Positions 1,335 through 55,119 of a DNA stretch of 64,000 nucleotides are shown piece by piece (the first letter of the stretch is position 1; the number at the start of each line of letters is the position of its first letter). Source of the DNA: a virus. The translations under genes were made by a program, and so were the position numbers. Location of the stretch: the IMG/VR virus record IMGVR_UViG_3300009078_000075, positions 1 to 64,000 of that record; one strand, 5' to 3'. The notes beneath the pieces were generated by a model. The model was not told the DNA's origin, searched no databases, and worked only from the letters and a program-made list of their open reading frames with translations.

Positions 1335-1871
1335 TTATAAAGTATAAATTTCCTCTTTTAATTTATCTTTAATTAACTTATGTACTTTATTTTTTAATAA
1401 ATTAATGGTAAACAGGGACTTACCCATGACCTCCGCTATTTCATTTAATGAATAATCCTGTTCGTATCGTAGAAATACAAACATTTTTTCTTTTTCATTC
1501 AGTATATTATATATTATGTCAAATATTTTTTTATTATATTCTTTTTTTAGAACATTATCTTCATAATCTGTATTATCAATAATTGAAAGATCATTTATAT
1601 CAACTTTATTACAATCTTTTGTTACAAATGTATTTACTGCCGATAAAATCCGGCAATAAATACATTTTCGAGCGTAAGTAGCAAATGTTCCCTTACTTTC
1701 AATATAATGTTTTATTGCAAAAATTAATCCATCAATTCCCCCATCATATAAAATATCATATGGAATAAACTTAAATTTTGATGATAAATTATGAATTACA
1801 TAATGGACTAATTTACTGTTTAAATTAAAATACTCTTGCTGTTTATCCGTTAATTTTGTTTCCTTCTTCAT
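1335..1871 (-). CDS. Sigma-70-like RNA polymerase sigma factor
   Basis: Region 2-like (LVHYVI...GLIFAIKHY...KGTFATYA) and region 4 HTH (YSLNEIAEVMG). Confidence 0.75.
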   Translation of the reverse strand: MKKETKLTDKQQEYFNLNSKLVHYVIHNLSSKFKFIPYDILYDGGIDGLIFAIKHYIESKGTFATYARKCIYCRILSAVNTFVTKDCNKVDINDLSIIDNTDYEDNVLKKEYNKKIFDIIYNILNEKEKMFVFLRYEQDYSLNEIAEVMGKSLFTINLLKNKVHKLIKDKLKEEIYTL

Positions 1872-9078: not shown

Positions 9079-10179
9079 TTATTTATTATCTAAATATGAA
9101 TTTAGTAAACACACACTGTATTTAAAATTACTCCCAATAAAAATAATTCTATTGTCACATAAAAGAACCTTTAATTCATTACATTTATTTTTCATATTTT
9201 TTAGTAAAATCGGATTTATATAAAATCTAAAATCCTTTACATTAAGATTTTTTTCTAATGAATAACAAGATGATCCTATCTTATTAGATATTGATTTACA
9301 TTCAATTAGAAATTTACCATTATAAGTGATAAGGACATTATAATACGGATTTAATTCATCCGCTTGATCATGAGAACAAATAACAACTGAATTTAGTATT
9401 TCAATAAATTCGTCAGAAATAAGTTGAGAAATATCAATAGCATTTTCATCAATATTTTCAACAAGACCAATAATTGTCTCATATTCTTCATCTGATAATG
9501 ATTCAATTCCATGTCTAAAACTTATGCAACTTACAATTCCTTTATAATCAGGTCCATTTTTCATTAAATGAATCCATCCCGATTCATTTGATTTATAATA
9601 ATATGTAGGGGAAATCTTTTTTATTGGATCAACTAAATTTACCGGAATTTGCATTTGTGTAATTTGTTTTGATAAATTTATTTTACAAACACTAAAAGTT
9701 GATCCCGAAAACATAACATCATCCTTTATATTAACACAAATAAGTCCCTTTTGCTGAATATCCTTACTTGCAGATGAGGCCGCCATTGATAATAAAGTAG
9801 TAAAATTATCGGGCAATTCTTCAAATAACGTTTGATTAAAATCGAAATCAATATTAAATTCATTTTTTATCTTTTTCATCAATAATTTAAAACAAAGGGT
9901 ATTTGAAATTGATGAAATGATTAAATTATTTTCCTCAACTGAAAGAACAATTTCATCATAAGGAAAAGTACTTAATATATTATTAAGATACGATGCCTTT
10001 ACTATCCCTTCAATCCCTGTGTTAAAAATAACATAACAGGCGGTGGTGTCTTTGTGTGTTTTTATTACATCCTTTGAAAAAAAATAACAATCAGATCCCG
10101 CTACAACATCTTTATCTGTTACTGCCAAACTTGCAATATTTAAAGCTTCAATTAATTGTTTTTTATTAATGGTATTCAT
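9079..10179 (-). CDS. Putative sliding clamp (DNA Pol III beta-like)
   Basis: 366 aa (beta-clamp size). N-terminus INKKQLIEALNIA, C-terminal FYINPILL; adjacent to the polymerase. Confidence 0.65.
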   Translation of the reverse strand: MNTINKKQLIEALNIASLAVTDKDVVAGSDCYFFSKDVIKTHKDTTACYVIFNTGIEGIVKASYLNNILSTFPYDEIVLSVEENNLIISSISNTLCFKLLMKKIKNEFNIDFDFNQTLFEELPDNFTTLLSMAASSASKDIQQKGLICVNIKDDVMFSGSTFSVCKINLSKQITQMQIPVNLVDPIKKISPTYYYKSNESGWIHLMKNGPDYKGIVSCISFRHGIESLSDEEYETIIGLVENIDENAIDISQLISDEFIEILNSVVICSHDQADELNPYYNVLITYNGKFLIECKSISNKIGSSCYSLEKNLNVKDFRFYINPILLKNMKNKCNELKVLLCDNRIIFIGSNFKYSVCLLNSYLDNK

Positions 10180-10188: not shown

Positions 10189-11124
10189 TTAAAAAAATCC
10201 AAATTTTTTAGGTTTTCTTACAAAAACCGAAGGATTTTGTGTAAGATATTCAGATATTTTTCTAAAATAGAAAAAATTTATTCGTCTTCTATACATATAA
10301 TGATTAGCTAAACCGGCCTCTTTTATAATTTCTATTTTTTTATTTGGAACTATCCATCTTTCATTTTCTTTTTTTATATGATTTGAAGGGACATTTATAT
10401 ATTCTGATATCCCCATTCTTGTATATTTTTTTGGAAAAAATGTATCAAAATATTCATCAATTTCTTTTTTTAATAATGAGTCCTTTGGAAGAAGATGGTA
10501 ATAAAAAAATCGATCAGAACTATTTATTTTTTTTGAATTTTCTTCCATATAAGCCATATGCACAATTCTATTATTAAGAAAATCCCATTTATTTTCTTTT
10601 TTTGTTGCTATCATAATATCTCCAAATCCAGCAACTAATATTGGTCGTACTGAATCAACTGATTCCCAGGGATAAGCAAACATTAAACTAATTGTTGTTA
10701 TTCCAAATCCGTGTACCTTTACTTTCGGATATCCCTTTTCATTACATATAATATCAAAACATTTTATTAACCAATTATGTACTGATTCAGTATCTGTTTT
10801 TGTCATTTTTGCCATTCCACCAAGTGCTATATATTCATATTTTTCAACATATAATTTTAATATTGAAAAATCTTCTCCATAATGAAAACAAGGGAGAACT
10901 TTTATATTTAAATTTGCATTATTTATTATTTCTTGATTTATTTGTGTTTGTTTTTGTGTTTCTTCCGTTCCACCGATAACATCTAAATTAGCAGCCATTA
11001 ATATTTCTTTTTCATTTTCTTTTAAAAAAGAAATATATTCATTTATATCAATTTTTTCTCCCTGTGTAAATGCAGTAAAGGCCCCTGAATCAACAAAAAT
11101 ATTTAATTTACTTTTAGCATTCAC
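10189..11124 (-). CDS. dpdA: DpdA-like / TGT-fold DNA 7-deazaguanine transglycosylase
   Basis: FVDSGAFT, NLDVIG, FHYGED, IALGGM, KVHGFG and YPWESVDS TGT-family motifs; que genes present in the same window. Confidence 0.75.
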   Translation of the reverse strand: MNAKSKLNIFVDSGAFTAFTQGEKIDINEYISFLKENEKEILMAANLDVIGGTEETQKQTQINQEIINNANLNIKVLPCFHYGEDFSILKLYVEKYEYIALGGMAKMTKTDTESVHNWLIKCFDIICNEKGYPKVKVHGFGITTISLMFAYPWESVDSVRPILVAGFGDIMIATKKENKWDFLNNRIVHMAYMEENSKKINSSDRFFYYHLLPKDSLLKKEIDEYFDTFFPKKYTRMGISEYINVPSNHIKKENERWIVPNKKIEIIKEAGLANHYMYRRRINFFYFRKISEYLTQNPSVFVRKPKKFGFF

Positions 11125-15198: not shown

Positions 15199-15699
15199 TT
15201 ACTTATTAAGTGCTTCCCTTTGTTGATCAACAATATCTTCCCTTGTTTTTTCTTTTTCTTTTTCACCCCTATTTCTTACAATGTTTCCTCTTTCTTTAAA
15301 ATTTTGTTTTAAATCTTTTGATGAGTTCCAATATTCATTAACCCACAAATCAGTTAGTTTTTCTAACATCTTTCTGTGTGTATATAATGCATCTAAAATT
15401 GATTTTAATTTATCTACATTTTTTTGAAATTGATTATATACAGAATCTTCTTCAACCGATGCCTTTACCTTTGATTCACTTATTTTTAAATCATTTTCTC
15501 TTAAATTTGAGCAAAATAATGATTTATACCCAGATTGTTCATATTTTACTTCTGATAATAGATCCCCATAATCAAGAACAAGTGTTGATAACATGGTCAT
15601 TTCTTGATGCAGAGCGTCTAAATCTAATGTCAAATTCGGTTTTGTTATTTCAATATATAAATACTTATATTGTGATATATCAATTTTTAATTCATCCAT
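15199..15699 (-). CDS. Putative UvsY-like recombination mediator
   Basis: Helical protein with KISESKVKASV...ALYTHRKMLEKL; context next to SSB/RecA. Confidence 0.5.
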   Translation of the reverse strand: MDELKIDISQYKYLYIEITKPNLTLDLDALHQEMTMLSTLVLDYGDLLSEVKYEQSGYKSLFCSNLRENDLKISESKVKASVEEDSVYNQFQKNVDKLKSILDALYTHRKMLEKLTDLWVNEYWNSSKDLKQNFKERGNIVRNRGEKEKEKTREDIVDQQREALNK

Positions 15700-16628
15700 T
15701 TTTGCTCATCTCCATTAAAATATTTAAAACATGATAACATCAATCCCGCTTTTCCTGTATAAAAAGCAGGGTCCTTAAAACAATAAATTCCAAATCCTGC
15801 CCTTATATCTGTATATGATTTTTCTATCATTTTTGAAAAATAACTGCATATTCCCCTTCTCATTTTTTCTACATTTTCACAGTCATTTATTACATTACAT
15901 ATAATGTCCCATTCCTTTTTTTTATACAAACATTGACACAATTGCCGAAAGACCCCTCCTGAAAGAACTGTTTTTTGAATTTCATCAAGGGCTTCTTCCT
16001 CTGATAACCCAATAACAGATTCTAAAATTGATATGGCATTTCTGTAAGCCCCTTCCGATGCTTTACATATTTCCCTTATTACATCATCGGAAATTTTAAT
16101 TTTTTCTTTTATACATATATCAGTTAATGCTTTTTTAATTCCAATATAGGGGGGATTTAATTTTTGAAGATGAAATACACTTGCCCTACTTATAATTCCA
16201 GCATTTATTTGTTCAATGTTTGTAGTACATAAAATAAAATAAACATGTTTGGGAGGTTCCTCAAAAACTTTTAAAAGTGATCCTTGAAAGGCACTGCTGG
16301 TTTCTTGAATTTCATCAATAATCCATACTCGAATTTTTCCGGAAGAAGGGGCAAGATCCAAATTTAATTTTAATTTATCCGCTGATCCTACTCCCCGATC
16401 TGTTCCAGCATCAATTTCGGTAAGGTCCCATTTTGAACAACCAAGTTCTTTTGCAAAAACTCGAGCAAATGTTGTTTTCCCTGTTCCATATGGTCCTGAA
16501 AATATAAAAAAATGTTTTGTAGAAGGATCATCCTTTTTTGAAACAATATATTTTAATTGTTTCTTAATCGAATCTTGTCCGATTATTTCATCAAAATCAT
16601 TTGGTCTATGTTTATTATATAATGACAT
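15687..16628 (-). CDS. dnaX: Clamp loader, DNA Pol III gamma/tau-like AAA+ ATPase
   Basis: LYNKHRPNDFDEIIGQ, GPYGTGKTT, IIDE, LLKVFEEPP, FILCTT. Confidence 0.88.
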   Translation of the reverse strand: MSLYNKHRPNDFDEIIGQDSIKKQLKYIVSKKDDPSTKHFFIFSGPYGTGKTTFARVFAKELGCSKWDLTEIDAGTDRGVGSADKLKLNLDLAPSSGKIRVWIIDEIQETSSAFQGSLLKVFEEPPKHVYFILCTTNIEQINAGIISRASVFHLQKLNPPYIGIKKALTDICIKEKIKISDDVIREICKASEGAYRNAISILESVIGLSEEEALDEIQKTVLSGGVFRQLCQCLYKKKEWDIICNVINDCENVEKMRRGICSYFSKMIEKSYTDIRAGFGIYCFKDPAFYTGKAGLMLSCFKYFNGDEQKWMN

Positions 16629-16681: not shown

Positions 16682-16743
16682 AGGGCAAAGAGGAGGCTTG
16701 TCAGTTATGGGTTTCTTCATATTATTGGTTCCACCTTTGCCCT
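16682..16743 (-). ncRNA. Stem-enclosed dual-spacer unit 3 (TIGR-like)
   Basis: On the minus strand: AGGGCAAAG-gtgg-AACCA-ataatatga-AGAAACCCA-taactgaca-AGCC-tcct-CTTTGCCCT. TACATAATA motif upstream at 16749-16757. Confidence 0.7.
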
Positions 16744-16773
16744 GTTTATATTATGTAACGTCCATTAAAATTT

Positions 16774-17511
16774 TTACACCGAAATCCAATCATTAGATAC
16801 AAAGGGGGATAAAAGGGGTAAATCTTTTAGCGAGTAATATTCATTCCAAAAATGAACAAATCTTCCATCTGGTGGGATTATTTTACATTGATCGATCAGA
16901 TTTAAAAAACAACTATCTACACAATATATTTTACGTGCCCCTTGTAATAAAGAAATCCAATCAAAAATTTCCCATCTATTTGAAGGAAATTGTTTTATTT
17001 CAATTGTTTTTATAGCTTTATCAATTTTAAAATCAAAATGTCTTCCGTTACTTCCATTTTGATGAATCACTATATAAGGATCATTTTTTATATCAAAAAA
17101 ATTAAGTAAATCTTTTTCAATTTCCGGAATTCTATTTATTATTTTTAATAAAAGATATTTATGAAAATAAGGAATACAGGCTTTTTTATATTTCCAAACA
17201 TCAAATGATAAATTTGTCTTTTTCCATTCATCATTTAGATTTTGATTTCCAAAACCAATTGCAAGATCCAAAGTCCCATTAAAATTATTACCTATATTTT
17301 TTGACCTCTCATATGCTTCAATCCCACTTGTTAGAGGACCAATATCAATTACGTTTATTGGAAAATTGACATATAAAAACAAATTTTGATATTCATTGCA
17401 AATGGGCCATGTTATTTCATATCCGAGATCATAATAATACTTTGCAATTGGAAGAACCAATAGGATATCCCCTTTTCGCCCTGGTTGTATTATTAATAAT
17501 TCTTTTCTCAT
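16774..17511 (-). CDS. Putative glycosyltransferase (GT9/GT-B-like)
   Basis: GRKGDILLVLPIA N-terminal motif, YIVIHQ, IYCVDSCFLNL. Confidence 0.6.
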   Translation of the reverse strand: MRKELLIIQPGRKGDILLVLPIAKYYYDLGYEITWPICNEYQNLFLYVNFPINVIDIGPLTSGIEAYERSKNIGNNFNGTLDLAIGFGNQNLNDEWKKTNLSFDVWKYKKACIPYFHKYLLLKIINRIPEIEKDLLNFFDIKNDPYIVIHQNGSNGRHFDFKIDKAIKTIEIKQFPSNRWEIFDWISLLQGARKIYCVDSCFLNLIDQCKIIPPDGRFVHFWNEYYSLKDLPLLSPFVSNDWISV

Positions 17512-17750
17512 TTTTGTATCCAATAATGGTATATTCCTTTTACCCAACTAAAGGTAAAAAAAATTGAAGTTATGAATAAACCAAATCTGAACACCGGGAA
17601 AAAACATATATAAAAATATGAAACCTGCCCTGCAAATAACAACAAAAAACCCCATTTTATTATATTTTTATTTTTTGAAGCTACAAAAAAACTTCCCAAA
17701 ATTGAAGTAACAATCATCCAAATTTGTAAAATTTGCTCAAATATAAACAT
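17508..17750 (-). CDS. Small membrane protein
   Basis: Three hydrophobic segments, WGF...GQ...GIYHW. Confidence 0.55.
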   Translation of the reverse strand: MFIFEQILQIWMIVTSILGSFFVASKNKNIIKWGFLLLFAGQVSYFYICFFPVFRFGLFITSIFFTFSWVKGIYHYWIQK

Positions 17751-28351: not shown

Positions 28352-30322
28352 ATGAAAATTGATGAAATTGTTCAATCGAATGAATATACAATTTCAGCAT
28401 TATTAGCTCTTTACGGGTATCAAACACAAGATGAACAAACTTCAGAATACACAACATCATTAAATGGAGCAGGATTTAATAAAATTGATGCCCCTATTCT
28501 TTCCTCTATTTCACAATTTTTTCTTAAAAATGGATTTTTAACCGAAAAACAATTATCCCTTGTAAAAAGATCAATTAAAAAATATCATACACAAATTGAA
28601 GCATTTGAATTAACTCCTGTAAAAACAAAAGAACCAAAAACAAAAGAACCAAAAACACAAGAAAATGGGGGGACCCCTTTTGAGGGAATTAAAAAGGCAA
28701 GACTCGAAAAAGATTTTATTTATCTTAAATTTCATTTTGCAAAGGGAGATAAAAAATTCTTTGAAATTCTTACAAAAGTAAAAACATTAGCATGGAGACA
28801 ATGGGACCCCGATACAAAAGAATGGAAAGTAAGGCGTTCCCTTGAAACATTAAAAAAATTACATGAGTGGGAATTTAAATTTGATGTTGAATTACAGAAA
28901 TGGTATGAATCAGTTTTTAGCAATAACATTAATAAGGATCTTGACGTTCCCATTGATATGTCTCTTTACCCATTTCAAAAAGAAGGGGTAGCATTTATTG
29001 ATCTTAAAAATGGAAGGGCATTAATCGGGGATGAAATGGGACTTGGGAAAACCTGTCAAGCAATCGGATGGACATCCCTTCATCCTGATAAAAAACCCGT
29101 ACTTATCATATGTCCTTCCAATGTCAAATTAAATTGGAAAAGGGAAATCAAAAAGTGTCTTCCCCGGGCAAGGGTTGAATTGGTAGAAGGACGGGATTAT
29201 AAGGGAGCAATGGACGGTGATTATGTTATTTGTAATTATGATATAGTGTCAAAAAATAAGGAAAAACTCATATCCACAAATTTTAAAGTATTGATACTTG
29301 ATGAATGTCATTATATAAAAAACTATAAAGCAAAACGAACTGCAGTAATTACTGAAATCGGAAAGGCAATTGAACATGTTATTTGTTTATCAGGGACTCC
29401 GATTGTTAATCGTCCCATTGAATTTTTTACAGCATTAAATTTACTACGTCCTGATTTATTCCCCTCATATTGGGAATATGTTAATAAATATTGTCCGGCA
29501 GATGGATGGACAAAGTGGCAAACAACAAAAGGTTCTGCAAATGAAATTGAACTTCATAATAATTTAATTCAAACCATGATGTTAAGACGATTAAAAAAAG
29601 ATGTTTTAACACAGCTTCCGTTAAAGCAACGGCAAGTTATCCCTATGGAATGTGATTTGACAGAATACAATAAAGCGGAAGACGATTTAATTTCATGGAT
29701 GAAAGAAAATGGATATGGTAAAGACAAAATTTTTTGTGCTATGAATGCTGAAATTATTACAAGGATTGAGTATTTAAAACAAATTGCAGTAAAGGCAAAA
29801 TATGAATCAATTGTTGATTGGATTAATAATTATTTAAGCTCAGGGAAAAAATTAGTTATTTTTTGTACTCATCATGCAACGATTGATTTTTTAATGGAAA
29901 CATTTAAAGGAATTGCAGTAAAATTAGATGGGCGTGATAATATGGGAAAAAAACAAATTGCCATTGATCGATTTCAAAGTGATCAAGAAATTAGACTTTT
30001 TATAGGAAATATAAAAGCGGCAGGAGTGGGAATTGATGGTTTACAAAATGTAGCAGAGGACACATGTTTTATTGAGTTAGGATGGACCCCTGGTGATCAT
30101 AATCAAGCAGAAGATCGAGTACATCGAATTGGACAAGAGGCAGATTCAGTGACAGCTTTTTATTTATTGACTGCTGGTACAATTGAAGAGGAAATTGCAG
30201 AATTAATTGATAAAAAAAGAAATGTATTAAATCAGATTTTAGACGGAAAAGTGCCCGATGAAACCGAATTGATAAGTATTTTATTAAATAACCTTTTAAA
30301 TAAGGAGACAAAAAATGGATAA
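28352..30322 (+). CDS. SNF2-family helicase (SMARCAL1/HARP-like)
   Basis: LYPFQKEG, GDEMGLGKT, DECH, LSGTP, LRRLKKDVL, QAEDRVHRIGQ. Confidence 0.92.
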   Translation: MKIDEIVQSNEYTISALLALYGYQTQDEQTSEYTTSLNGAGFNKIDAPILSSISQFFLKNGFLTEKQLSLVKRSIKKYHTQIEAFELTPVKTKEPKTKEPKTQENGGTPFEGIKKARLEKDFIYLKFHFAKGDKKFFEILTKVKTLAWRQWDPDTKEWKVRRSLETLKKLHEWEFKFDVELQKWYESVFSNNINKDLDVPIDMSLYPFQKEGVAFIDLKNGRALIGDEMGLGKTCQAIGWTSLHPDKKPVLIICPSNVKLNWKREIKKCLPRARVELVEGRDYKGAMDGDYVICNYDIVSKNKEKLISTNFKVLILDECHYIKNYKAKRTAVITEIGKAIEHVICLSGTPIVNRPIEFFTALNLLRPDLFPSYWEYVNKYCPADGWTKWQTTKGSANEIELHNNLIQTMMLRRLKKDVLTQLPLKQRQVIPMECDLTEYNKAEDDLISWMKENGYGKDKIFCAMNAEIITRIEYLKQIAVKAKYESIVDWINNYLSSGKKLVIFCTHHATIDFLMETFKGIAVKLDGRDNMGKKQIAIDRFQSDQEIRLFIGNIKAAGVGIDGLQNVAEDTCFIELGWTPGDHNQAEDRVHRIGQEADSVTAFYLLTAGTIEEEIAELIDKKRNVLNQILDGKVPDETELISILLNNLLNKETKNG

Positions 30323-30869
30323 GAAAATTGAATTTACAAAAGAAATGGAAAAGATTTGTTGTTACTGGGCTTGGAAATATACAACAAAAAGTCATATGTT
30401 ATTTGACGAATTAAAATCAGTTGCATTTTATACTTTTTGTGACGTTCGGAGAACATATTTAGAAAATCATTCACAGGCCCCATTTAAGGCGTATCTACAA
30501 AGGGCATTAGATATTACCTTAAAAAGGGCCGTTTCAAATGATTTACGTTTTACTAATGTCTCATATGATTCAGTATTTAATGTTAAGGTTCCCTGTAAAT
30601 ATTATCCGCAGGATATTTCAGAATGTGATTTTTTACAACTGGATCAAATGGACAATGTTGATGAAATTCTTAGTAGGGAACAATTAATAGAAAACCTTTC
30701 ATGTGAATCAAAGGAAATGATTTACATTATAATAAAGAATCACGGAGATATTTTTTTAGGACGAAAAGAAACAAAACAAAGGGTTTTAAATTATTTTCTT
30801 TCCCTTAATTGGAAAAGAGGAAAAATAACCAAATGTTTTAATGAAATTAAATCAATTTTGTCATTATAG
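30315..30869 (+). CDS. Divergent sigma-factor-like protein
   Basis: FDELKSVA...APFKAYL region 2-like; weak C-terminal similarity. Confidence 0.45.
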
Positions 30870-32208: not shown

Positions 32209-33138
32209 ATGGGGATTGCCTTGGTTTTTGACGTAAAGAGATTTATACAGGATTACGATATAAATAACTACCCAGAGGGGAAGAATGTAGGGAAGGGATG
32301 GATTGGAATTGAATGTCCTTTTTGTAAGGATGGAACAGTTCATGGGGGATTTAATATCAAAGAGGGTTATTTCAGTTGTTGGAAATGTGGGGGACATAAT
32401 TTATATGAATCAATAAAAGCTCTTACCGAATTAAATCATTCAGATATAATAGATATCCTTAAAAATTATAAAATAGGGGATAATGATACTGATATAAAAA
32501 TTGAACCATCAAATGAAGTAAAAAATGAATTTGTTATTATTCCCGGAAATCCTTTGTATGGCCCCTATATTCAGTATCTTATAAATAGAAATTTTGATCC
32601 CGTAAAATTAGAAAAACAATATGCATTAAAAGCGACCGGGCCAATTGGAGATTATAAATTTCGTATTGTGGCCCCTATTGTATTTAGAGGAAAAGAGGTA
32701 TCATATCAAGCTCGAAGCATTATAAATCATGAAAATGTTGCTAAATACCTTCCCTGTCCAAAAGAAAAAGAAGTGATTCATTATAAAAAAATCCTGTACA
32801 ATCTTGATAATTGTAATGGGGACAACATTATTGTAGTAGAAGGGATTACCAGTGTATGGCGGCTTGGTAATCATTCTGCTGCCACTTTTGGCATTCAATA
32901 CACAACCAAGCAAGCTTATTTATTAAGTAAATTTAAAAAAATTTTTTTGGTATTTGACAATGATCCGGAAAGAATTTCGCAGTCTACAATTCAAGCAAAA
33001 AAATTAATTTCCTGTGTACATCAATTTACTGATCATTCTGAAATTTTTTTGATCAATTTTACTGGGAAAAAGGACCCGGGTGAATTTACTGATCAAGAAG
33101 CAGCAGAATTTAAGAACGATCTTTTTAAAAATTCCTAA
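32209..33138 (+). CDS. DNA primase (zinc finger + TOPRIM)
   Basis: CPFC...CWKCG zinc finger, VVEG, FDND, KDPGE. Confidence 0.85.
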   Translation: MGIALVFDVKRFIQDYDINNYPEGKNVGKGWIGIECPFCKDGTVHGGFNIKEGYFSCWKCGGHNLYESIKALTELNHSDIIDILKNYKIGDNDTDIKIEPSNEVKNEFVIIPGNPLYGPYIQYLINRNFDPVKLEKQYALKATGPIGDYKFRIVAPIVFRGKEVSYQARSIINHENVAKYLPCPKEKEVIHYKKILYNLDNCNGDNIIVVEGITSVWRLGNHSAATFGIQYTTKQAYLLSKFKKIFLVFDNDPERISQSTIQAKKLISCVHQFTDHSEIFLINFTGKKDPGEFTDQEAAEFKNDLFKNS

Positions 33139-33840
33139 TTATAATAAAATATAAAAAATCTTTATCTTTTTATATCTTGCTAAACAATAAGCTAACAATA
33201 AGCTAACAATAAGCCAGCAAATTGTTTTTTCCCTTGTTTTTTAAATTTTAGCATTTTTTTAATCAATTTGACAGGAAAAGACGATTATGAATCAAAATAC
33301 AAAAATAAGCAAATTTTAATGATTTTTATATTTTTCATATAGTTAAGGATAAAATTATAATAAATAAAATAAAATTTATTATACTTTATAAATAATAGGG
33401 CAAAAGTTATAAGTACATAGGATTTCAATAGTTTACAAAAAATTTTAATATATTAGAAATCAATAATATAGATATATTATAAAAATTTCAATGGATTTAT
33501 TTTTTACTAAAGTTGAATAAAAATGAATAAAATTTTACCCGTTTTGGATTTTTTCAATCGATTTTTTAACAAAATTAAAATGTTTAACTATTACAATAAG
33601 TTAACCTTGAATAAAGACAAGCAAAGTAAACATATCGGGATCACACAAAAACAATATGCTTCCGTATCCCCGTAGGGGATACGGAGCTTATTGTTTGTGT
33701 ATCCCATACTCGGAATGTATTTTTACAGAATATAAAAAAATGAGATTTTTTATATTCCATTGAATTGAAGAATATTTCTTTTGTAAAATATAAAAAAATA
33801 AAGATTTTTATAAAATATTAAAAATAAAAAAATTTAACTG
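33139..33840. other. Putative replication origin
   Basis: Very AT-rich non-coding gap between primase and helicase, with three tandem AACAATAAGCT and a 69-bp palindrome. Confidence 0.55.
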
Positions 33841-33861
33841 AAAATACATAATAATATCATG

Positions 33862-33922
33862 AGGGCAAAGGGGAACCATAAAAGGGAAGAAACCCAATCC
33901 GTTCAAGCCTCACCTTTGCCCT
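33862..33922 (+). ncRNA. Stem-enclosed dual-spacer unit 1 (TIGR-like)
   Basis: AGGGCAAAG-ggg-AACCA-taaaaggga-AGAAACCCA-atccgttca-AGCC-tcac-CTTTGCCCT; TACATAATA at 33845. Confidence 0.7.
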
Positions 33923-33955
33923 TATAAATTTTGATGGACGTTACATAATAATAAC

Positions 33956-34016
33956 AGGGCAAAGGGGAACCAAAAAGAAAAAGAAACCCATATGAATAAA
34001 GCCTCCTCTTTGCCCT
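33956..34016 (+). ncRNA. Stem-enclosed dual-spacer unit 2 (TIGR-like)
   Basis: AGGGCAAAG-ggg-AACCA-aaaagaaaa-AGAAACCCA-tatgaataa-AGCC-tcct-CTTTGCCCT; TACATAATA at 33942. Confidence 0.7.
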
Positions 34017-34155
34017 ATATTTTTAAAAAAGGAATATATGAAAGAAAAAAAAGAAAGTATTAAAAAAGTAAATGAAAGAAAAACACTCTTTGAAAAATCT
34101 GAAAAAATGAAAAAATGCATCCAGTCTATAAATGAAATTTTAAGAAAGGGTACAA

Positions 34156-35715
34156 ATGCCAAGTAACCCGATCACATGGACAAAACAAAGAATTAATGTA
34201 AACATAGAAAAACTTATTCTCACGGGTATCATCGTATCCGACGAATTTACAAAAGAAATATTCAAAATAATAAATCGTGATAACTTAAAGATATTCAATT
34301 TGCCTTATTTTAAGCTAATTGTGCCCTGGTGCATGGAGTATTATAATAAGTTCCATAAATGTCCCGGGAGAACAATACAAGATTTATTTATTGAAAATTT
34401 TCGATCCCTAAGTGATGAAGATTCCGTTTTTATAAAAGAATTTTTGTCAAACCTTTCCGATCAATACGATTCCGAAGCAAATTCTTTTGATGTTAATTAT
34501 GTACTTGAAAAAGCAAAAAAATATATAAAACTTCAGTCTTATTCATTTTATGGAGAAAAAATATATAAGACTTCATTATCAGGGAATGTAGATGAATGTG
34601 ATTTGATACGTGAAGATTTTAATAAAATGACAATAACAGGTTCCGGAAGTGGAGATATATTAGATAAGTTTGCTAAATCGATTGGTGATTTTCTTCAGAT
34701 GGATATTGAAACAAATCGGTTTTTTCTTAAACCTTTTTTATATCGGGGTGCCCTCATATTAGTACATGGAAAAAGAGGTGCTGGAAAATCATTTTTTAGT
34801 CAATCGATTGCTTTAAGTATTTCAACCGAATTGAAAAATAACAAGGATATTGATTTTGGATCATGGGAAGTATGGAATAAGGCAAAAGTGTTATATGTTA
34901 ATGGGGATGATCCACCGGGGGAAATTTTGTATAGGTTAAAAAAACTTACTCATCGATTTGATTTGACACATGAAAAGAATGCTCTTTTTGAAATTTTGTC
35001 GGTTTTACAATTAAACCAAGAAACACAGACCACTTTTAATTTATATCATAGACCGGATCGTGAAATACTTACTGATTATGTTAGAAAAAATCATGTTGAT
35101 GTTTTGATTCTTGACAACTTGAGTACATTATCTTATGGGGCAGATGATAAAGAGGCAACAAGTTGGGCCCCGGTAAATTTGTGGTTAGTGCAGTTACGGC
35201 AATTTGGTATTTCCGTTATCGTAATTGATCATGAGGGAAAGGACTCGAGTAAGGGGGCACGGGGAACATCGGCAAAATCTGATAGCATGGATGCTGTAAT
35301 AAGTGTTTCAGCAATGAATAATGAAGATGATGAGAATCAAAGCGATTGTTTTTGTGAGATTCGTTTTCAAAAAAGACCAAGAACACAAATTGAAAAAGTT
35401 GATTTAAGTCCTTTTCTTTTTAATATGAAACGGATTGATGAAGAGGAAAATTTAGTGTGGGAAGTACAAAAAAATAAAAGAATCCCAATTGAAAAAAAGG
35501 ATTCTGTATCAAATATAACCATAAAAACCATGGTTCTTGAAGGGTATAATAATAAAGATATTATAAAGGAATGTAATTTAAAAGGGGACTGGGCAATTCA
35601 GAATGTAAAAAAAGATTTAAAAAACAGAGGATACATTGAAGATAATCGATATGGTAAAATTACTGAATCAGGGAAAGAATACCTTGAAAAATTAAAGAAA
35701 TCAGGGATGGAATGA
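34156..35715 (+). CDS. Replicative helicase (SF4/RepA-like AAA_25)
   Basis: Walker A GKRGAGKS, LILDNLSTL, IDHEGK, ARGTSAK. Confidence 0.8.
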   Translation: MPSNPITWTKQRINVNIEKLILTGIIVSDEFTKEIFKIINRDNLKIFNLPYFKLIVPWCMEYYNKFHKCPGRTIQDLFIENFRSLSDEDSVFIKEFLSNLSDQYDSEANSFDVNYVLEKAKKYIKLQSYSFYGEKIYKTSLSGNVDECDLIREDFNKMTITGSGSGDILDKFAKSIGDFLQMDIETNRFFLKPFLYRGALILVHGKRGAGKSFFSQSIALSISTELKNNKDIDFGSWEVWNKAKVLYVNGDDPPGEILYRLKKLTHRFDLTHEKNALFEILSVLQLNQETQTTFNLYHRPDREILTDYVRKNHVDVLILDNLSTLSYGADDKEATSWAPVNLWLVQLRQFGISVIVIDHEGKDSSKGARGTSAKSDSMDAVISVSAMNNEDDENQSDCFCEIRFQKRPRTQIEKVDLSPFLFNMKRIDEEENLVWEVQKNKRIPIEKKDSVSNITIKTMVLEGYNNKDIIKECNLKGDWAIQNVKKDLKNRGYIEDNRYGKITESGKEYLEKLKKSGME

Positions 35716-35985: not shown

Positions 35986-36924
35986 ATGATTTGTAAAGAA
36001 TGTGGAATTAATTTTTCTATAATAACCCATACTCATTTAAAAAAACATAATCTTACAATAAATGAATATAAAAATAAATATAATATAGTTTCTTTGGTTG
36101 ATCCATGTTTTGGACAAAAAATGAGTATGAAGTTAAAGGGGAAAATTAATATAGGAGAAAAAAATGCAAGTAAACGAAAAGAAGTAAGATCAAAAATTTC
36201 TGAATCTGTTAAAAATAGATGGGAAGAAGGAAAGTATAAAAATCGTATAAATGGGATGTTAGGAAAACTCGGAGAATTGTCTCCTAATTTTAAGATTGAA
36301 AAAAGAACTCCTTTGTTTTTGGCAGAACACAATTATGTAAAATTTTTGTCTCAATTTCAAGATACACATGTTTGTAGTTTGTGTAAAAGTTCCGATAAAA
36401 AAATTAATATACATCATATTGATGAAGATCATTCTAATTTTCTTCCTTCTAATTTAGAACCTTTATGTGTTCCGTGTCATTCTCAATATCATTATAAATT
36501 TGCAAAGGGACCTTTTATGAGAATTGGTAAATTTTTTTCTTTTGCTGGTGCTCATTTTTTACCTGATTATGATGGTATTTGTAATCATCTTCATGGGCAT
36601 GAATGGAAATTAGAAGTGTTTGTAAAAAAAAGAGTTAATTATAAGACTGGAATGGTTTTAGATTTTACTATTTTAAAAAAAATAGTAGATAATTTTATTA
36701 TTTCAAAATTAGATCATTGTTTTTTAAATGATATTATATCTAATCCAACTGCGGAAAATATATTAATTTGGATATGGGAAAAATTAATGTTTGATGGTTT
36801 ATTAAAAGGAATAGATGAAATAAATTTATGGGAAACAGAAAAAAGTAAAATTTCTCTCAGTAGTAAAGAAATGCTATCTATTTTTTCAAATAATATTGAA
36901 GAATATATTTTGGGGGAAATATGA
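35986..36924 (+). CDS. queD: QueD (6-carboxytetrahydropterin synthase) fused to N-terminal zinc finger/HNH domain
   Basis: C-terminal FAGAHFL..CNHLHGHEW, GMVLDF, LDH..LN, PTAENI, WET. N-terminal CKECG..THLKKH and HHIDEDHSN...NL..LC..CH. Confidence 0.85.
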   Translation: MICKECGINFSIITHTHLKKHNLTINEYKNKYNIVSLVDPCFGQKMSMKLKGKINIGEKNASKRKEVRSKISESVKNRWEEGKYKNRINGMLGKLGELSPNFKIEKRTPLFLAEHNYVKFLSQFQDTHVCSLCKSSDKKINIHHIDEDHSNFLPSNLEPLCVPCHSQYHYKFAKGPFMRIGKFFSFAGAHFLPDYDGICNHLHGHEWKLEVFVKKRVNYKTGMVLDFTILKKIVDNFIISKLDHCFLNDIISNPTAENILIWIWEKLMFDGLLKGIDEINLWETEKSKISLSSKEMLSIFSNNIEEYILGEI

Positions 36925-37592
36925 TGATAAAAGTAAATGAAATATTTTTATCAATTGATGGTGAAGTAAATGCCTTTGGTCAGGGGGGATTTTCTACATT
37001 TATTCGTTTTTCTGGTTGTAATTGTAAATGTAATTATTGTGATACTCAGTATCATAATACTGGTACTTATTATTCAATTGCACAAATTATGGATAAAGTA
37101 AGGGAAATCGGATGTAATAAAATAACAATCACAGGGGGGGAACCTTTGCTTCAATCAGAAAGTATACCCTTGATTGAAGCATTAGTATTTAGTCATCATA
37201 GTGTTTCCGTTGAAACAAATGGATCAATTGAAGTTCCTTTTATAATGGGATCATTTTATTTGTCATTTGTGGTGGATTATAAATTACCATCATCCGGAAT
37301 GATGGATCGAATGAAACCGATAAAAATGTTTCAAAAATTAGGACCCCTTGATTTTGTAAAATTTGTTATTCAAAATGATGAAGACTTTTTATGTGCTTGC
37401 CGTATTGCAAAAGAGGTGAGAAGTGTAAATTATGGGACATCAATTGCTTTTAGTCCTGTATTTTTAAAACAAGATGATGGTCGTTTTATTCAATCGTATC
37501 CCTTATATGATAAAATGATTGAAGCAAAACTATTTGAAATTCCAAAAATGTTTCTTAATTATCAAATTCATAAAATAATAGGATTAAAGTAA
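36921..37592 (+). CDS. queE: 7-carboxy-7-deazaguanine synthase (radical SAM)
   Basis: EIFLSIDGE, FIRFSGCNCKCNYCDT, ITGGEP, VETNG, QIHK. Confidence 0.9.
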   Translation: MMIKVNEIFLSIDGEVNAFGQGGFSTFIRFSGCNCKCNYCDTQYHNTGTYYSIAQIMDKVREIGCNKITITGGEPLLQSESIPLIEALVFSHHSVSVETNGSIEVPFIMGSFYLSFVVDYKLPSSGMMDRMKPIKMFQKLGPLDFVKFVIQNDEDFLCACRIAKEVRSVNYGTSIAFSPVFLKQDDGRFIQSYPLYDKMIEAKLFEIPKMFLNYQIHKIIGLK

Positions 37593-37604
37593 AGGAGAAA
37601 AATC

Positions 37605-38285
37605 ATGAAATTAGATAATGATAATTGTCTTGTTCTTTTATCTGGGGGACAAGATTCTACTACTTGTCTTTTTTGGGCATTAAATAATTTTAATGAAGTA
37701 AATGCTCTGTTTATTAATTATAAACAAAGGCATCGAATAGAAGAGGAATCAGCTTTTAAAATTGCAAATCTTGCTGGTGTTCCCATTGGATTGATATGTA
37801 CTGATATTATAGCAGATATTGGGGATTCTGCCCTTGTTATGACGGGAGATATTTTAAGTAAACATAGATCCGGGGATTTACCGGCTTCTTTTGTACCAGG
37901 AAGAAATATTTTATTTTTGACAATAGCTGCTATGTATGCTTATAAATTAGGAATACATAATATTGTGGCAGGGGTTTGTGAAACTGATTATTCAGGATAT
38001 CCCGATTGTAGACAAAAAACGATTGATTCTGTTCAAAATACCCTTAATTTGGGAATGGAATATGATTTTGTTATACATACCCCTTTGATGTATAAAACTA
38101 AATGTGAAACTGTTATAATGGCTTCTTTATTGTCCGGGTGTTGGGATGCCCTTGCATGGAGTCATACATGTTATGAGGGAAAAATTCCACCTTGTGGTAA
38201 ATGCCCTTCATGTGTGTTGAGGGCACGTGGATTTGAAGAAGCCGGATATGAAGATCCTTTAATAAAAAGACTGGGGATTAAGTAA
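37605..38285 (+). CDS. queC: 7-cyano-7-deazaguanine synthase
   Basis: LSGGQDSTT, FVPGRN, YPDCR, SHTCY, CGKCPSCVLR. Confidence 0.95.
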   Translation: MKLDNDNCLVLLSGGQDSTTCLFWALNNFNEVNALFINYKQRHRIEEESAFKIANLAGVPIGLICTDIIADIGDSALVMTGDILSKHRSGDLPASFVPGRNILFLTIAAMYAYKLGIHNIVAGVCETDYSGYPDCRQKTIDSVQNTLNLGMEYDFVIHTPLMYKTKCETVIMASLLSGCWDALAWSHTCYEGKIPPCGKCPSCVLRARGFEEAGYEDPLIKRLGIK

Positions 38286-39187
38286 TGAATAAATTATTTT
38301 ATACTTGGAGAGATTTTCAAAAAGATGTTAATTTATTAGTTGAGACGTGTACAAGATATTCAGCAATATATGGGGTTCCCAGAGGGGGAATTCCCTTGGC
38401 CGTTGCTTTGTCTCAAAGAACCGGAATTCCTATTATTGAAGATAAAGAACAAGTAATACATGATAATACAGTATTAGTGGTTGATGATATAGTAGATTCA
38501 GGAAAAACAAGGAATAAATTTTTAAAAAATAATTTTATTGCAATTCATGGTCGATGTAAATGGGAAGACACATTGACTATAAATTGTTTAAATTATTCGG
38601 ATGATTGGATTGTTTATCCTTGGGAGGTTGATACTGAAAATACAGGTCCTACAGATTCAGTAACCCGATTGATTGAATTTATAGGGGAAGATCCAAATAG
38701 GGAAGGCATTATTGATACCCCAAAGAGAGTTATTAAATCATATGAAGAAATATTTAAGGGGTATATACAAGAACCTTCTCAAATATTTACTACTTTTGAT
38801 TCAGAGGGATATGATTCCCTTGTAATGCTTAAAAATATAGAAATATATTCTATGTGTGAGCATCATATGCTTCCTTTTTTTGGAAAAGCCCATATAGCGT
38901 ATATTCCAGATGGAAAAATAATCGGGATATCTAAATTAGCAAGACTTGCAGAAATTTATTCACGGAGAATGCAAATTCAAGAAAGAATAGGGGAACAAAT
39001 TACCTCTGATTTAATGAAATATCTTAAACCAAAGGGGGCAGCATGTATTATTGAGGCTTCCCATTTATGTATGAGGATGAGAGGGGTAAGTAAGCAAAAT
39101 TCTACAATGATGACCAGTTCTTTAAAAGGTGTTTTCCTTGAAAATATTTCTGCTCGACAAGAGCTTATGGAATTGATAAAAGATTAA
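38285..39187 (+). CDS. folE: Phosphoribosyltransferase fused to GTP cyclohydrolase I
   Basis: N-terminal GVPRGG, LVVDDIVDSGKT, WIVYPWE (Gpt-like). C-terminal DTPKRV, SMCEHHMLPF, GISKLAR, QER, HLCMRMRG. Confidence 0.92.
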   Translation: MNKLFYTWRDFQKDVNLLVETCTRYSAIYGVPRGGIPLAVALSQRTGIPIIEDKEQVIHDNTVLVVDDIVDSGKTRNKFLKNNFIAIHGRCKWEDTLTINCLNYSDDWIVYPWEVDTENTGPTDSVTRLIEFIGEDPNREGIIDTPKRVIKSYEEIFKGYIQEPSQIFTTFDSEGYDSLVMLKNIEIYSMCEHHMLPFFGKAHIAYIPDGKIIGISKLARLAEIYSRRMQIQERIGEQITSDLMKYLKPKGAACIIEASHLCMRMRGVSKQNSTMMTSSLKGVFLENISARQELMELIKD

Positions 39188-47416: not shown

Positions 47417-47869
47417 ATGAAATATTTAGAATATCGAAATATGACATCTAAGCAAATTGCAGGTAAGTTAAGAAAAGAAAAATTATGGTATGATTATGTA
47501 ACTGCACTTCGGGGGCCAGATTTTTGTGAAAATAATTTAAAGGATCTTTTTACATGTTTTCTCCGGGGAAAAATGAAACTATTATCCGGGATGATGGGAA
47601 TAGTTTATTTTGAAAGAAAAATTTATTCAATTTATAAAGAAATAATTTCATCTGAAAAATCTGATTATTTTATTGAATTTCCTGGTATTGAATTTAATTT
47701 TGGTAGAAAACATTGGATAAGACATATATATTCAGGATTACAAGCAGTTGAATCATTTGGTGAAGAAGTGGAAGAAATTGCAAATGCATTGGAAATAGCT
47801 TTGTGCAATGACAATGCATTTTCTTTTATAAATATTGAAAGAATTGTAAATATAATAAAACCATTATAA
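47417..47869 (+). CDS. Hypothetical protein, paralog of 49647..50153
   Basis: Shared W.DY.TALRGPD...LK.LFTCFLRG and HW..H...LQA. Confidence 0.7.
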   Translation: MKYLEYRNMTSKQIAGKLRKEKLWYDYVTALRGPDFCENNLKDLFTCFLRGKMKLLSGMMGIVYFERKIYSIYKEIISSEKSDYFIEFPGIEFNFGRKHWIRHIYSGLQAVESFGEEVEEIANALEIALCNDNAFSFINIERIVNIIKPL

Positions 47870-49646: not shown

Positions 49647-50153
49647 ATGAAAAATCTTTCGTATAAACAATATCGTAAGTTATCTCCTGAGGCTATTGTA
49701 AATCGAATAAAAATTAGATACCCCGTTGAAAAAAGGAATATAATATGGTGGGATTATATAACAGCACTTCGGGGACCCGATGTTGATAATGAGCCTTTAA
49801 AGAAATTATTTACATGTTTTCTTCGAGGTTCTTTTGGTTTGTATACAAAACAATGTAACTATTTTGGTATATTCTTTTTTGAGTCTTTTGTTTTTAGACG
49901 TGCAAAAAAATATGGAGATCGAACATTAAATGATACATTTTGTTATACATTTATTGATTCAAATGACCATTGGAGGGCTCATATGTGTTGTGCATTACAA
50001 GCAACTGTTTGTCTTGGCCCCGAGATTGAAGAAATTGCATTAACTTTGTATACGTGTTTAAAAGAGAAAAAAGTAACGGTAGGAGATATTTTGAAGCTTT
50101 CAGAATTATTAAAGAAATACATTCCTGATTCTGATTTATATTTATTTGACTAA
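49647..50153 (+). CDS. Hypothetical protein, paralog of 47417..47869
   Basis: See paralog. Confidence 0.7.
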   Translation: MKNLSYKQYRKLSPEAIVNRIKIRYPVEKRNIIWWDYITALRGPDVDNEPLKKLFTCFLRGSFGLYTKQCNYFGIFFFESFVFRRAKKYGDRTLNDTFCYTFIDSNDHWRAHMCCALQATVCLGPEIEEIALTLYTCLKEKKVTVGDILKLSELLKKYIPDSDLYLFD

Positions 50154-51199: not shown

Positions 51200-51733
51200 A
51201 TGGAATTTATTGGGTTTCCAAAAATTGCAAGGATTAGTCGAGAAGTAATTGTAACGGAAATGATTGATGGAACAAATGTACAAATTTATATAACAGAAGA
51301 TGGCGAATTTTATACGGGATCAAAATCCCGATGGATTACCCCTGAAAATGATAATGCCGGGTTTTCTCGATGGGCCTATGAACACAAATCAGACCTTTTA
51401 ACCCTTGGCCCTGGGAGGCATTTTGGTGAATGGTGGGGATCAGGGATTCAAAGGGCATATGGGTTAAGTAAAGGGGATAAAAGGTTTTCCCTTTTTAATG
51501 TTTCCCGGTGGGGGATGGAACGGCCCCTTTGTTGTGAGGTTGTTCCTGTGTTGTGGGAGGGTAATTTTGATGATTTAAATGTAAATCAGATAATGAATAT
51601 ACTTTCCTTTCATGGTAGTGTTGCTGTTCCTGGTTTTATGCGGCCAGAGGGGATCGTTATATATCATACTGCTGCCAATATGTGTTTTAAGAAAACATTT
51701 GAGAAAGATGGGACAGGAAAGTGGGAAAAATAA
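51200..51733 (+). CDS. RNA ligase-like nucleotidyltransferase with Lys-to-Met in motif I
   Basis: FPKIAR, TEMIDGTN (expected TEKxDGTN), GEWWG, PEGIV, FKK. Confidence 0.75.
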   Translation: MEFIGFPKIARISREVIVTEMIDGTNVQIYITEDGEFYTGSKSRWITPENDNAGFSRWAYEHKSDLLTLGPGRHFGEWWGSGIQRAYGLSKGDKRFSLFNVSRWGMERPLCCEVVPVLWEGNFDDLNVNQIMNILSFHGSVAVPGFMRPEGIVIYHTAANMCFKKTFEKDGTGKWEK

Positions 51734-51759
51734 AGAGGATAATACATAATATATTTGAA

Positions 51760-52099: not shown

Positions 52100-52534
52100 A
52101 TGAAAAAATTACTGATATTCCTTTTTCTTCTTATTCCTGTTTCTTCTTTTGCTGTTCAAAATAAAATCATGGTGGGAAAATCATTTGAAAAATACAATTA
52201 TTATGGGTATCAATTACAGGGGGATCATTTATTTACTCAGTTAACAGCAATTGGGGATGGTCTTTTTCTTGGTTGGGGGATTCATTTAGATTATCGTCAA
52301 TGGACGATTGGATCATCAATTGGAAAATGGTCCCCTGGTGAGAATTCCCCTGATCTGGGATGTCCCGTTGAGTTTTTTTCATTTATTGAGTATAGATTTT
52401 CCCTTGAAATTGAGATTGATCAAAGTGTTGTTTTTTATCCTGACTTGTCTATTTCAATCGGACATATGTCAAATGCCCATTTAGAACATAAAAATCCGGG
52501 GATTAATATTATTTCACTTAATTTTTTATTTTAG
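52100..52534 (+). CDS. pagL: PagL-like lipid A 3-O-deacylase (outer-membrane beta-barrel)
   Basis: Signal peptide, HMSNA catalytic His-x-Ser, NPGIN, terminal Phe. Confidence 0.7.
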   Translation: MKKLLIFLFLLIPVSSFAVQNKIMVGKSFEKYNYYGYQLQGDHLFTQLTAIGDGLFLGWGIHLDYRQWTIGSSIGKWSPGENSPDLGCPVEFFSFIEYRFSLEIEIDQSVVFYPDLSISIGHMSNAHLEHKNPGINIISLNFLF

Positions 52535-54010: not shown

Positions 54011-54247
54011 ATGATGCCACAATATGATTATAAGTGTAGTATATGTGAAAAGGAACGTATCGTGATTCATCGTATAAATGAATCCCCTGTTATCCGTTGT
54101 ATATGTGGTTCTGAGATGAAACGAATTATTAAAAAGGCCCCCGCCTTTAAAATCAATGGTTATTTTACGTCAAAGACGGGGTATAGTAAAGACCCTCAAT
54201 ATATGAAAATGGTCGAACAGAAAAGGAAAAGGGAAAGGCAAAGATGA
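54011..54247 (+). CDS. FmdB-family zinc ribbon protein
   Basis: MPQYDYKCSIC...CICG..MKRII..F...G..Y. Confidence 0.8.
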   Translation: MMPQYDYKCSICEKERIVIHRINESPVIRCICGSEMKRIIKKAPAFKINGYFTSKTGYSKDPQYMKMVEQKRKRERQR

Positions 54248-55119
54248 TTACTATTATTAAAAAATTTGTTACATCAAGTGGAAAGGAATTTGATTCGGAA
54301 GAAGCCGCATTGAAAGAAGAAAAAAATGAAATTATAGAGAAAATTGTTAATGACGTTCCAGATGAATTAATAAATGATGTTTTATCAATACTTGAAAAAA
54401 AGAATAATCAAAAATTACTATTAACAAAATTTGCTATGTTTAATAATAAAAAAGTAAGTGATAAAAAAGAAAAAGTAAGTGATAAAAAAGAAAAAGTAAG
54501 TGATAAAAAAGAAAAAGTAAGTGATAGAAAAGTAAGTAAGAAGAAAAGGAATAAAGGTCTTATATTGGGGGAGGATGCAAGAAGATATAAACAGGCACAA
54601 ATAGATAATAATGAGGAAAGAAAAAAATGTAAGGAAATGGGTTTAAAAATAAATAAAATTAAAAAAATTAGAAAACAAAAAAATGTTCCAGTGGATATGT
54701 TATTAATTAACCTTGTTGAGGAACAGACTAAAGAACTTATATTAAAAATACAAATCAGGGAAATTAAGAATCGTAGAAAAGAAAATGGAATTTGTGCAAG
54801 ATGTGGAAAATGTTATTCAATGGCTCATGTTTATAATATGGCATTAGAACATATAATAAAGGGTGAATTAGATTGGTGTCTTCCGGAACAATGGGAAGAT
54901 GAAAAAATAGCGGTGGATTGTTTAGAATGTGAGATTAATAGAATTATATCATTTGATCCTGAGGATTATGAAAAAGCAAAAAGAGATCCTGTTTATAATA
55001 TGAAAAGATTGGAAAAGTTAAGTAATATAAAAAGAATTTTTGATCTTTCTCCTGCTAAAAATTTAACAGGTTCCCCTACACCCAAAGAATTATTAAAAGT
55101 AAAATTTGAAAAGGAATGA
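54244..55119 (+). CDS. Hypothetical Lys-rich protein with KVSDKKE tandem repeats
   Basis: 21-nt tandem repeat at about 54451-54525; CARC/CLEC pairs. Confidence 0.6.
   Translation: MITIIKKFVTSSGKEFDSEEAALKEEKNEIIEKIVNDVPDELINDVLSILEKKNNQKLLLTKFAMFNNKKVSDKKEKVSDKKEKVSDKKEKVSDRKVSKKKRNKGLILGEDARRYKQAQIDNNEERKKCKEMGLKINKIKKIRKQKNVPVDMLLINLVEEQTKELILKIQIREIKNRRKENGICARCGKCYSMAHVYNMALEHIIKGELDWCLPEQWEDEKIAVDCLECEINRIISFDPEDYEKAKRDPVYNMKRLEKLSNIKRIFDLSPAKNLTGSPTPKELLKVKFEKE

Follow-up and report, generated by a model that had tools for sequence, protein, structure and literature searches.

Probable orphan TIGR-family guide RNA genes in a freshwater-sediment phage with no detectable tas gene

We identified three copies of a hairpin-closed, dual-spacer unit in a phage genome of ~91.6 kb, the 82.5 kb in hand containing no detectable tas gene. 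The units are probably orphan guide-type RNAs of the TIGR family, and the explanation that we favour, with modest confidence, is that they are three genes for hairpin-closed dual-spacer RNAs, promoted singly, which would use a Tas protein made elsewhere. Transcription of the units, binding of the RNAs by Tas and supply of that protein in trans are what we infer from the sequence.

The window analysed here, 64 kb in length, is the first part of an 82,517-bp IMG/VR virus record (29% GC, rated 90% complete by CheckV), and the sequencing runs that contain this phage DNA are freshwater-sediment metagenomes. ORFs are interrupted at both ends of the contig, and a 291-aa protein encoded by the phage is recorded in identical form on six JGI contigs, the longest of 91,613 bp; taken together, these observations show that ~9 kb of the genome is absent from the record. 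Approximately 70 ORFs were annotated, covering replication, nucleotide metabolism, 7-deazaguanine synthesis with DpdA, sigma factors, glycosyl- and methyltransferases and virion genes (Table 1). Given the DpdA-type transglycosylase and the QueD/E/C and FolE genes, the phage DNA probably carries 7-deazaguanine, and a PagL-like domain hints at a Gram-negative host. Neither of two paralogous small proteins matched any family. For the helicase, no relatives were found in IMG/VR or GenBank phages, and a 7.7-kb Logan contig encodes its sole close relative, with 83% identity; between the SNF2 helicase and proteins of cultured phages, identity does not exceed 35%. The major capsid protein has two relatives (45% identity), both without units and without Tas. 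Near-identical records were masked in the scans.

Anatomy and setting of the three units

All three units follow the same architecture, stem / CCA-N9-AG-AAAC-CCA-N9-AG / stem. Units 1 and 2, of 61 nt each with a start-to-start spacing of 94 bp, read AGGGCAAAGGGGAACCA-N9-AGAAACCCA-N9-AGCCTC(AC/CT)CTTTGCCCT, and the closing repeat of the units is AGGGCAAAG/CTTTGCCCT. The initial annotation had described this pair as a two-unit mini-array closed by 9-bp stems. On re-reading the sequence, the spacing, the AACCA-N9-AGAAACCCA-N9-AGCC cores (33874-33909 and 33968-34003), the closing repeat and the TACATAATA motifs at 33845 and 33942 were all as described. The pair is thus real, but the count was short by one: scanning the contig for the frame revealed a third exact unit on the minus strand. 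Likewise, the stems are present but longer than stated, at 10-13 bp with G-U pairs counted, and in RNA folds of the three units they enclose an open loop of ~35 nt. In the fold of unit 1 (-19.9 kcal/mol) the closing stem has 10 bp and the internal loop stays open, unit 2 folds with a 13-bp stem (-19.5 kcal/mol, z = -2.8), and the stem of unit 3 has a single bulged U.

Table 1 Features of the phage genome and of G001. Positions refer to the 64-kb window unless G000, L008 or G001 is named.
Feature	Position	Strand	Details
Left-end cut ORF	1-429	-	Start (SFSGGKDS) PAPS-reductase-like, by eye only
Sigma-70-family protein	1335-1871	-	Pfam: region 4 alone
Sigma-70-family protein	5027-5665	-	Pfam: regions 2+4
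DpdA-type queuine/7-deazaguanine transglycosylase	10189-11124	-	phrog_887, E = 1e-46
Clamp-loader gene	15687-16628	-	Directly 3' of unit 3; phrog_5846, E = 4e-55
Unit 3, solitary	16682-16743	-	Spacer A 16725-16717 (ATAATATGA); loop 16716-16708; spacer B 16707-16699 (TAACTGACA)
GGACGTTACATAATA 5' of unit 3	16749-16763	-	Same sequence precedes unit 2
Third sigma-like protein	30315-30869	+	Resemblance by eye only
Three 11-bp direct repeats (AACAATAAGCT)	33183-33220		In AT-rich primase-helicase gap
Long near-perfect palindrome	33640-33705		Terminator-like core; in AT-rich primase-helicase gap
Promoter-like motif TACATAATA of unit 1	33845-33853	+	8 nt 5' of stem
Unit 1	33862-33922	+	5' stem 33862-33873; box C 33876-33878; spacer A 33879-33887 (TAAAAGGGA); loop AGAAACCCA 33888-33896; spacer B 33897-33905 (ATCCGTTCA); box D 33906-33907; 3' stem to 33922
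Linker, 33 nt, TATAAATTTTGATGGACGTTACATAATAATAAC	33923-33955	+	Holds promoter-like motif TACATAATA of unit 2 (33942-33950)
Unit 2	33956-34016	+	Spacer A 33973-33981 (AAAAGAAAA); loop 33982-33990; spacer B 33991-33999 (TATGAATAA)
42-aa ORF and DnaB-like helicase gene	34038-35715	+	Directly 3' of unit 2; helicase 34156-35715
QueD/E/C and FolE genes	35986-39187
Two paralogous small proteins	47417-47869, 49647-50153	+	Common motif W(W/Y)DY(I/V)TALRGPD...LFTCFLRG
RNA ligase	51200-51733
PagL-like lipid A deacylase domain	52100-52534	+	E = 8e-7
Orphan 291-aa lysine-rich protein	54244-55119	+	Four KVSDKKE repeats, CxxC...CxxC tail
Further TACATAATA sites, examples	39211, 49216, 53299, 53989, 55792, 56999 and 2786-
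460-aa protein	G000 79683-81065 (L008 16683-18065)	-	Repeated Cys-rich GICTWGKC zinc-ribbon-like modules, two HNH-like motifs
Right-end cut ORF	G000 82318-82517	-	GC-rich, pentapeptide-repeat
G001 units, dispersed	G001 35879, 80712, 95522	+, -, +

The frame is found three times in the window against an expected 0.64 even when three mismatches are tolerated, and the stem word AGGGCAAAG occurs six times (0.27 expected). A relaxed TIGRFinder-like scan of the 82,517-bp record returned the three units, one chance-level match and nothing else; shuffled genomes run as a control yield 0-1. No match close to the gathering score was obtained in an Rfam search.

Variation between the copies is confined to the spacers, the N9 segments being random from one copy to the next. 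Outside the spacers, 69 of 74 positions (~93%; 31 nt of 5' linker included) are the same in units 2 and 3, against 8 of 18 within them (Fisher p = 1e-5). Both halves of the linker between units 1 and 2 reappear flanking unit 3, one on each side, and the unit copies consequently look like excerpts of a single array of 94-bp period in which only the N9 segments have been swapped.

Every unit starts 5-8 nt 3' of a TACATAATA motif. This motif is present in 14 copies in the window where 1.6 are expected, a ninefold enrichment; all copies lie on the coding strand, most of them 15-60 nt 5' of a ribosome binding site (RBS) and start codon. Its abundance, strand consistency and position ahead of genes argue for a promoter element, plausibly one read by a sigma factor of the phage itself, and the suggestion that the units are individually promoted cassettes gains support from this recurrence. 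No sigma-70 consensus promoter was found ahead of the units. The phage's sigma-family proteins are candidates for recognising this class of motif. The motif frequently stands just 6-25 nt ahead of an RBS, and one copy is located 5' of a structured intergenic region at 51743.

Genes point leftward below 28 kb and rightward above it, and the units are co-oriented with their arms. Units 1 and 2 lie inside a 1-kb AT-rich gap between the primase gene (32209-33138) and the gene for the DnaB-like helicase, and unit 3 between an ORF without a family match and the clamp-loader gene. The RBS/ATG at 34038 follows the end of unit 2 by 21 nt, too little space for a further promoter ahead of the helicase operon; for unit 3, the distance to the clamp-loader RBS/ATG at 16628 is 53 nt. 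With a motif immediately upstream and a gene start this close downstream, units 2 and 3 would be the first elements transcribed in the helicase and clamp-loader transcription units. The 11-bp iterons and the palindrome of the primase-helicase gap could be origin elements; however, the minimum and turn of the GC skew fall near 28 kb rather than at the gap, and the proposed location of the units next to an origin is therefore not established.

Relation to TIGR arrays and the search for a Tas protein

TIGR-Tas systems and their stem-loop arrays are already published (2025-2026). A published tigRNA contains two ~9-nt spacers, each with a box C (CCA or a variant of it) on one side and a box D (UG/CG or a variant) on the other, joined by a loop that is mostly 9 nt long, equivalent to a 4-nt gap from D to C, and closed by edge repeats or by a stem; a Tas dimer binds the dual-spacer RNA. 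For stem-loop tigRNAs, TIGRFinder requires a palindromic stem of at least 5 bp, or at least 8 bp where box D is a variant. The units resemble the stem-loop systems (PlTasA, BlTasA, PateTasR, CsTasR; Faure et al. 2025; Xu et al. 2026; PMC12045711; bioRxiv 10.64898/2026.09.09.750476) in being hairpin-closed around two 9-nt spacers, in their CCA and xG boxes and 9-nt loop, in their flexible positions and in the tandem placement of two of them. The pattern CCA-N9-AG-AAAC-CCA-N9-AG is seen in three of three units, the 10-13-bp stems exceed the TIGRFinder threshold, and the three units share a frame while differing in their spacers. The earlier proposal of a TIGR-like dual-spacer RNA therefore holds up: the geometry is that of a TIGRFinder stem-loop tigRNA. 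In contrast to the published stem-loop systems, there is no tas gene in 82.5 of ~91.6 kb here, and there are just three units, each with a promoter-like motif. Stems and linkers are near-identical between the units, whereas published stem-loop stems differ within an array, and the AG of box D passes TIGRFinder only as a variant differing by one nucleotide.

Support for AG as a genuine box D comes from the experimentally characterised SpTasH array of Salicola phage CGphi29 (NC_020844; accession from PMC13421893), which reads CCA-N9-AG-CGAG-CCA-N9-AG-ACAA-CCA. More than 117 IMG/VR contigs match CCA-N9-AGAAACCCA-N9-AGC, approximately 40 of them with 2-21 matches each at a 36-nt period. We read these 36-nt-period loci as TIGR arrays of the dual-repeat kind, in which the edge is AGCGAGCCA and the loop AGAAACCCA. 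A TasH-derived HMM identified 46 Tas ORFs adjoining AGAAACCCA arrays; 14 of 37 array-linked Tas ORFs reach Pfam PF02371, two of them also with HNH. The units thus bear the loop repeat of a widespread, Tas-linked type of phage TIGR array. Cellular genomes yielded at least 120 loci with the array pattern, mostly single and at chance level, with more than one match in 2 of the 80 loci listed, a scarcity that fits the published statement that the TIGR family is mostly viral. The frame GGAACCA..AGCC gave no matches in IMG/VR, and the 30 matches to AACCA..AGCC in JGI metagenomes all lack a stem and are close to chance expectation.

The loop of the dual-repeat arrays (IMG/VR L045, L068 and others) is identical letter for letter to that of the units. 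Box C CCA, box D AG and 9-nt spacers are common to the units, the dual-repeat arrays and the SpTasH array, and AGC after spacer B is common to the AGAAACCCA arrays and the units. The dual-repeat arrays differ in alternating edge and loop repeats head to tail at a 36-nt period beside a Tas gene, stemless and with excision by Tas, whereas a unit has one tigRNA-sized core inside a 10-13-bp stem, and the tandem pair has a 94-bp period and a 33-nt promoter-bearing linker. The edges also differ, being AACCA/AGCC in the units and GAGCCA/AGCGAG in the arrays. As a result, the position beside box C/D is an A.C mismatch in the units and a G-C pair in canonical edge repeats: an extra G-C pair is lost, and short edge pairing is replaced by a long stem. 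Given this mismatch, the cognate Tas may differ from known ones, or its binding may be weak.

Searches of the 82.5-kb record for a Tas protein were uniformly negative. No match at E <= 10 was obtained with PF01798 (Nop), PF02371 or PF01548, with SpTasH as the query, or with profile A1, which was built from 37 array-linked Tas ORFs. HMMs of 120 TasH homologues (run on all six-frame ORFs) and of 46 array-linked Tas ORFs gave noise only (best E 0.24-0.39), and hhalign against every ORF of at least 100 aa gave a probability of at most 2%. As positive controls, in which no stem-loop-clade Tas sequence was included, SpTasH was recovered from NC_020844 by PF02371 (E = 2e-7) and A1 (E = 3e-72). Against the PDB, A1 reaches TasH, the IS621 and ISCro4 transposases and 9mty, a 331-aa IS110-CTD chain that we take to be TasR. 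The notion of a resident RNA-guided system with its own Tas thus found no backing, five independent searches with positive controls having detected no Nop or IS110-CTD gene in the 82.5-kb record; the absence of tas is established for 90% of the genome, with ~9 kb outside the record. An IS110 bridge RNA finds no counterpart either: no DEDD/Tnp transposase adjoins the units, and PF01548 and PF02371 are both absent.

Individual ORFs were considered as Tas candidates and rejected. The ORF adjoining unit 3 (16774-17547, 257 aa) has no family match and is GT9-like by eye only; 4164-5030 has a glycosyltransferase fold, 9079-10179 encodes a sliding clamp, 10189-11124 is DpdA, and 79683-81065 combines a Zn-ribbon with HNH and has no Nop domain. 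In the last of these, a 460-aa protein encoded at the far end of the minus-strand arm, Pfam matches the second HNH-like motif only (HNH_5, HNH_4). The orphan 291-aa protein matched nothing in PDB, PHROG or Pfam and had no homologue but itself among 5.8 billion clusters; its ESM fold is of low confidence (pLDDT 0.49), and the protein does not resemble a Nop domain.

Recurrence in a second phage and search for targets

Solo tigRNA-type units without Tas recur. G001 (IMGVR_UViG_3300028837_001424; 112,591 bp, 45% GC, rated 100% complete by CheckV) contains exactly three CCA-N9-AG-N4-CCA-N9-AG frames where 0.2 are expected, and no Tas was detected in it by PF02371, A1 or the 46-sequence HMM. Its dispersed units resemble those described above in being solo and of the form CCA-N9-AG(A/C)AACCCA-N9-AGCG; all end in AGCG, with the loop AGAAACCCA twice and AGCAACCCA once. 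Two have closing stems, of 9 and 14 pairs with one mismatch tolerated. One unit lies 3' of an extended -10-like element, TGGTACAAT. The two phages are unrelated, and the G001 units differ in retaining the canonical G-C pair at their edges and in lying away from replication genes; one has no closing stem and is followed by a terminator, and one runs antisense to the genes around it. Upstream of the unit at 35879 are an ADP-ribosyltransferase gene and then a 63-aa ORF, and a ChaB-domain gene lies downstream. One unit with a closing stem, again without Tas, is present on a 44-kb contig (G003, 78% complete). Most of the single IMG/VR matches are due to chance; a few are closed by stems.

Targets were modelled from the published cut geometry (8-nt 3' overhangs, C-5 rule) as spacer A with the reverse-complemented spacer B behind it, in both orders and with gaps of 0-2. 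The predicted 18-bp sites are TAAAAGGGA+TGAACGGAT, AAAAGAAAA+TTATTCATA and ATAATATGA+TGTCAGTTA. The search for such bipartite sites, proposed at the outset, gave nothing above shuffled controls, whether in the genome of this phage, in G001 or in viral loci with TIGR totalling 1 Mb. The best self match, 16 of 18 positions at 11763 in the alternative order, has p ~ 0.06 against shuffled spacers. In large collections exact 18-mers are expected by chance, and such a search has no statistical power there.

Possible roles and the source of Tas

In the mechanism that we favour, each unit would be transcribed from its own TACATAATA-class phage promoter, with the start at the stem or a little 5' of it. 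The stem, of 10-13 bp, would shut an open loop of ~35 nt that presents two variable 9-nt segments. Box C (CCA) and box D (AG) frame each of these segments, and the loop AGAAACCCA joins them. The long stem would take the place of Tas-dependent processing and shield the RNA ends, so that ready-made RNAs could load onto a AGAAACCCA-type Tas dimer encoded elsewhere. A source outside the record seems most likely since the record has no tas gene; the protein could come from the ~9 kb absent from the contig, from a resident prophage or from a co-infecting phage with a AGAAACCCA-type TIGR-Tas. Within this guide reading, the phage might have its own tas in the absent 9 kb, might pirate and re-aim a foreign Tas, or might use the RNAs as decoys.

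The first of these versions, in which a stem-loop TIGR-Tas system belonging to the phage would have its guides scattered as the three units, we consider possible but on the whole doubtful. It accords with the ORFs cut at both contig ends, the 90% completeness estimate and the 91,613-bp JGI contig that carries the identical 291-aa protein, and published stem-loop tigRNAs are flexibly placed around tas. Such units usually lie within a few kb of tas, however, whereas all three here are 16-34 kb from the contig ends, and the pattern of three units without Tas is repeated in G001, for which the completeness rating is 100%.

It is rather unlikely that the units are pure RNA decoys, an RNA anti-TIGR whose harmless guides would occupy the Tas of a rival phage or of a prophage in the host. 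They are solitary and strongly promoted in a phage with no detectable Tas of its own, Tas-linked arrays of other phages have an identical frame, no self-target was found, the stem would make processing by Tas needless, and Racr RNAs, which mimic CRISPR repeats, are a documented precedent (PMC10651486). A decoy, however, would have no need of three different spacer pairs on near-identical flanks. This arrangement resembles specificity and leads us to favour guides over pure decoys; no Tas-bearing partner in the same host is known. The decoy idea retains some weight because no target was found and no partner is known.

Two further explanations are Tas-independent, and neither accounts for both the loop identity and the fixed 9-nt segments. 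It is improbable that the units act in cis as 5'-leader hairpins through which the helicase and clamp-loader mRNAs would be stabilised, attenuated or controlled in translation; the same estimate covers leaders derived from tigRNAs and mere lookalikes. The short distances from units 2 and 3 to replication genes with no intervening promoter and the U-rich tract 3' of each stem fit such leaders, but unit 1 precedes another unit and not a gene, the G001 units are not 5' of replication genes and include an antisense one, and the exact match of AGAAACCCA to TIGR arrays would be left unexplained. Least credible is a phage-specific repeat unrelated to TIGR, for instance a DNA palindrome close to the origin that binds a protein: the copies number only three and lie in or near the AT-rich, iteron-bearing gap, but the 15-nt frame CCA-N9-AGAAACCCA-N9-AGC is expected ~2e-5 times per genome from base composition and defines real arrays elsewhere, unit 3 is 17 kb from the gap, and the units are co-oriented with transcription behind a promoter-like motif.

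The nearest analogues of the units are Racr RNAs and the crRNA-like RNAs or orphan mini-arrays of viruses (PMC10651486; PMC11656645; bioRxiv 10.1101/2024.10.29.618823). These too are guide-like RNA genes with their own promoters, in viruses without the effector, that act only via the protein of another element; here, likewise, solitary promoted guide-like units occur in a virus with no effector in the 82.5 kb in hand. The effector of those RNAs is Cas and not Tas, and the logic is analogous, not homologous. By extension, we tentatively suggest that Tas-less phages may keep promoted hairpin mimics of tigRNAs either for guide piracy or for Tas saturation, the latter being a first RNA anti-TIGR, with the same three-unit strategy in the unrelated G001.

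What seems to be new is, first, the hybrid design, with a dual-repeat-type core in a long stem, one promoter per unit and a place at the head of replication operons, second, the lack of a detectable Tas in the 82.5 kb in hand, and third, the recurrence in a complete, unrelated phage. We found no paper on orphan tigRNAs or anti-TIGR RNAs in the literature. TIGR-Tas has been catalogued around tas genes only, and guide-like units in Tas-less genomes are consequently unsurveyed. Should tas lie in the absent 9 kb, the phage would simply have another scattered stem-loop TIGR system. Of practical interest is a stem-closed guide format on a dual-repeat frame, with one promoter and free of processing. 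If the RNAs act via a foreign Tas, they would represent a natural inhibitor or re-programmer of Tas proteins made of RNA, and would bear on the natural role of TIGR-Tas, pointing to conflict between phages.
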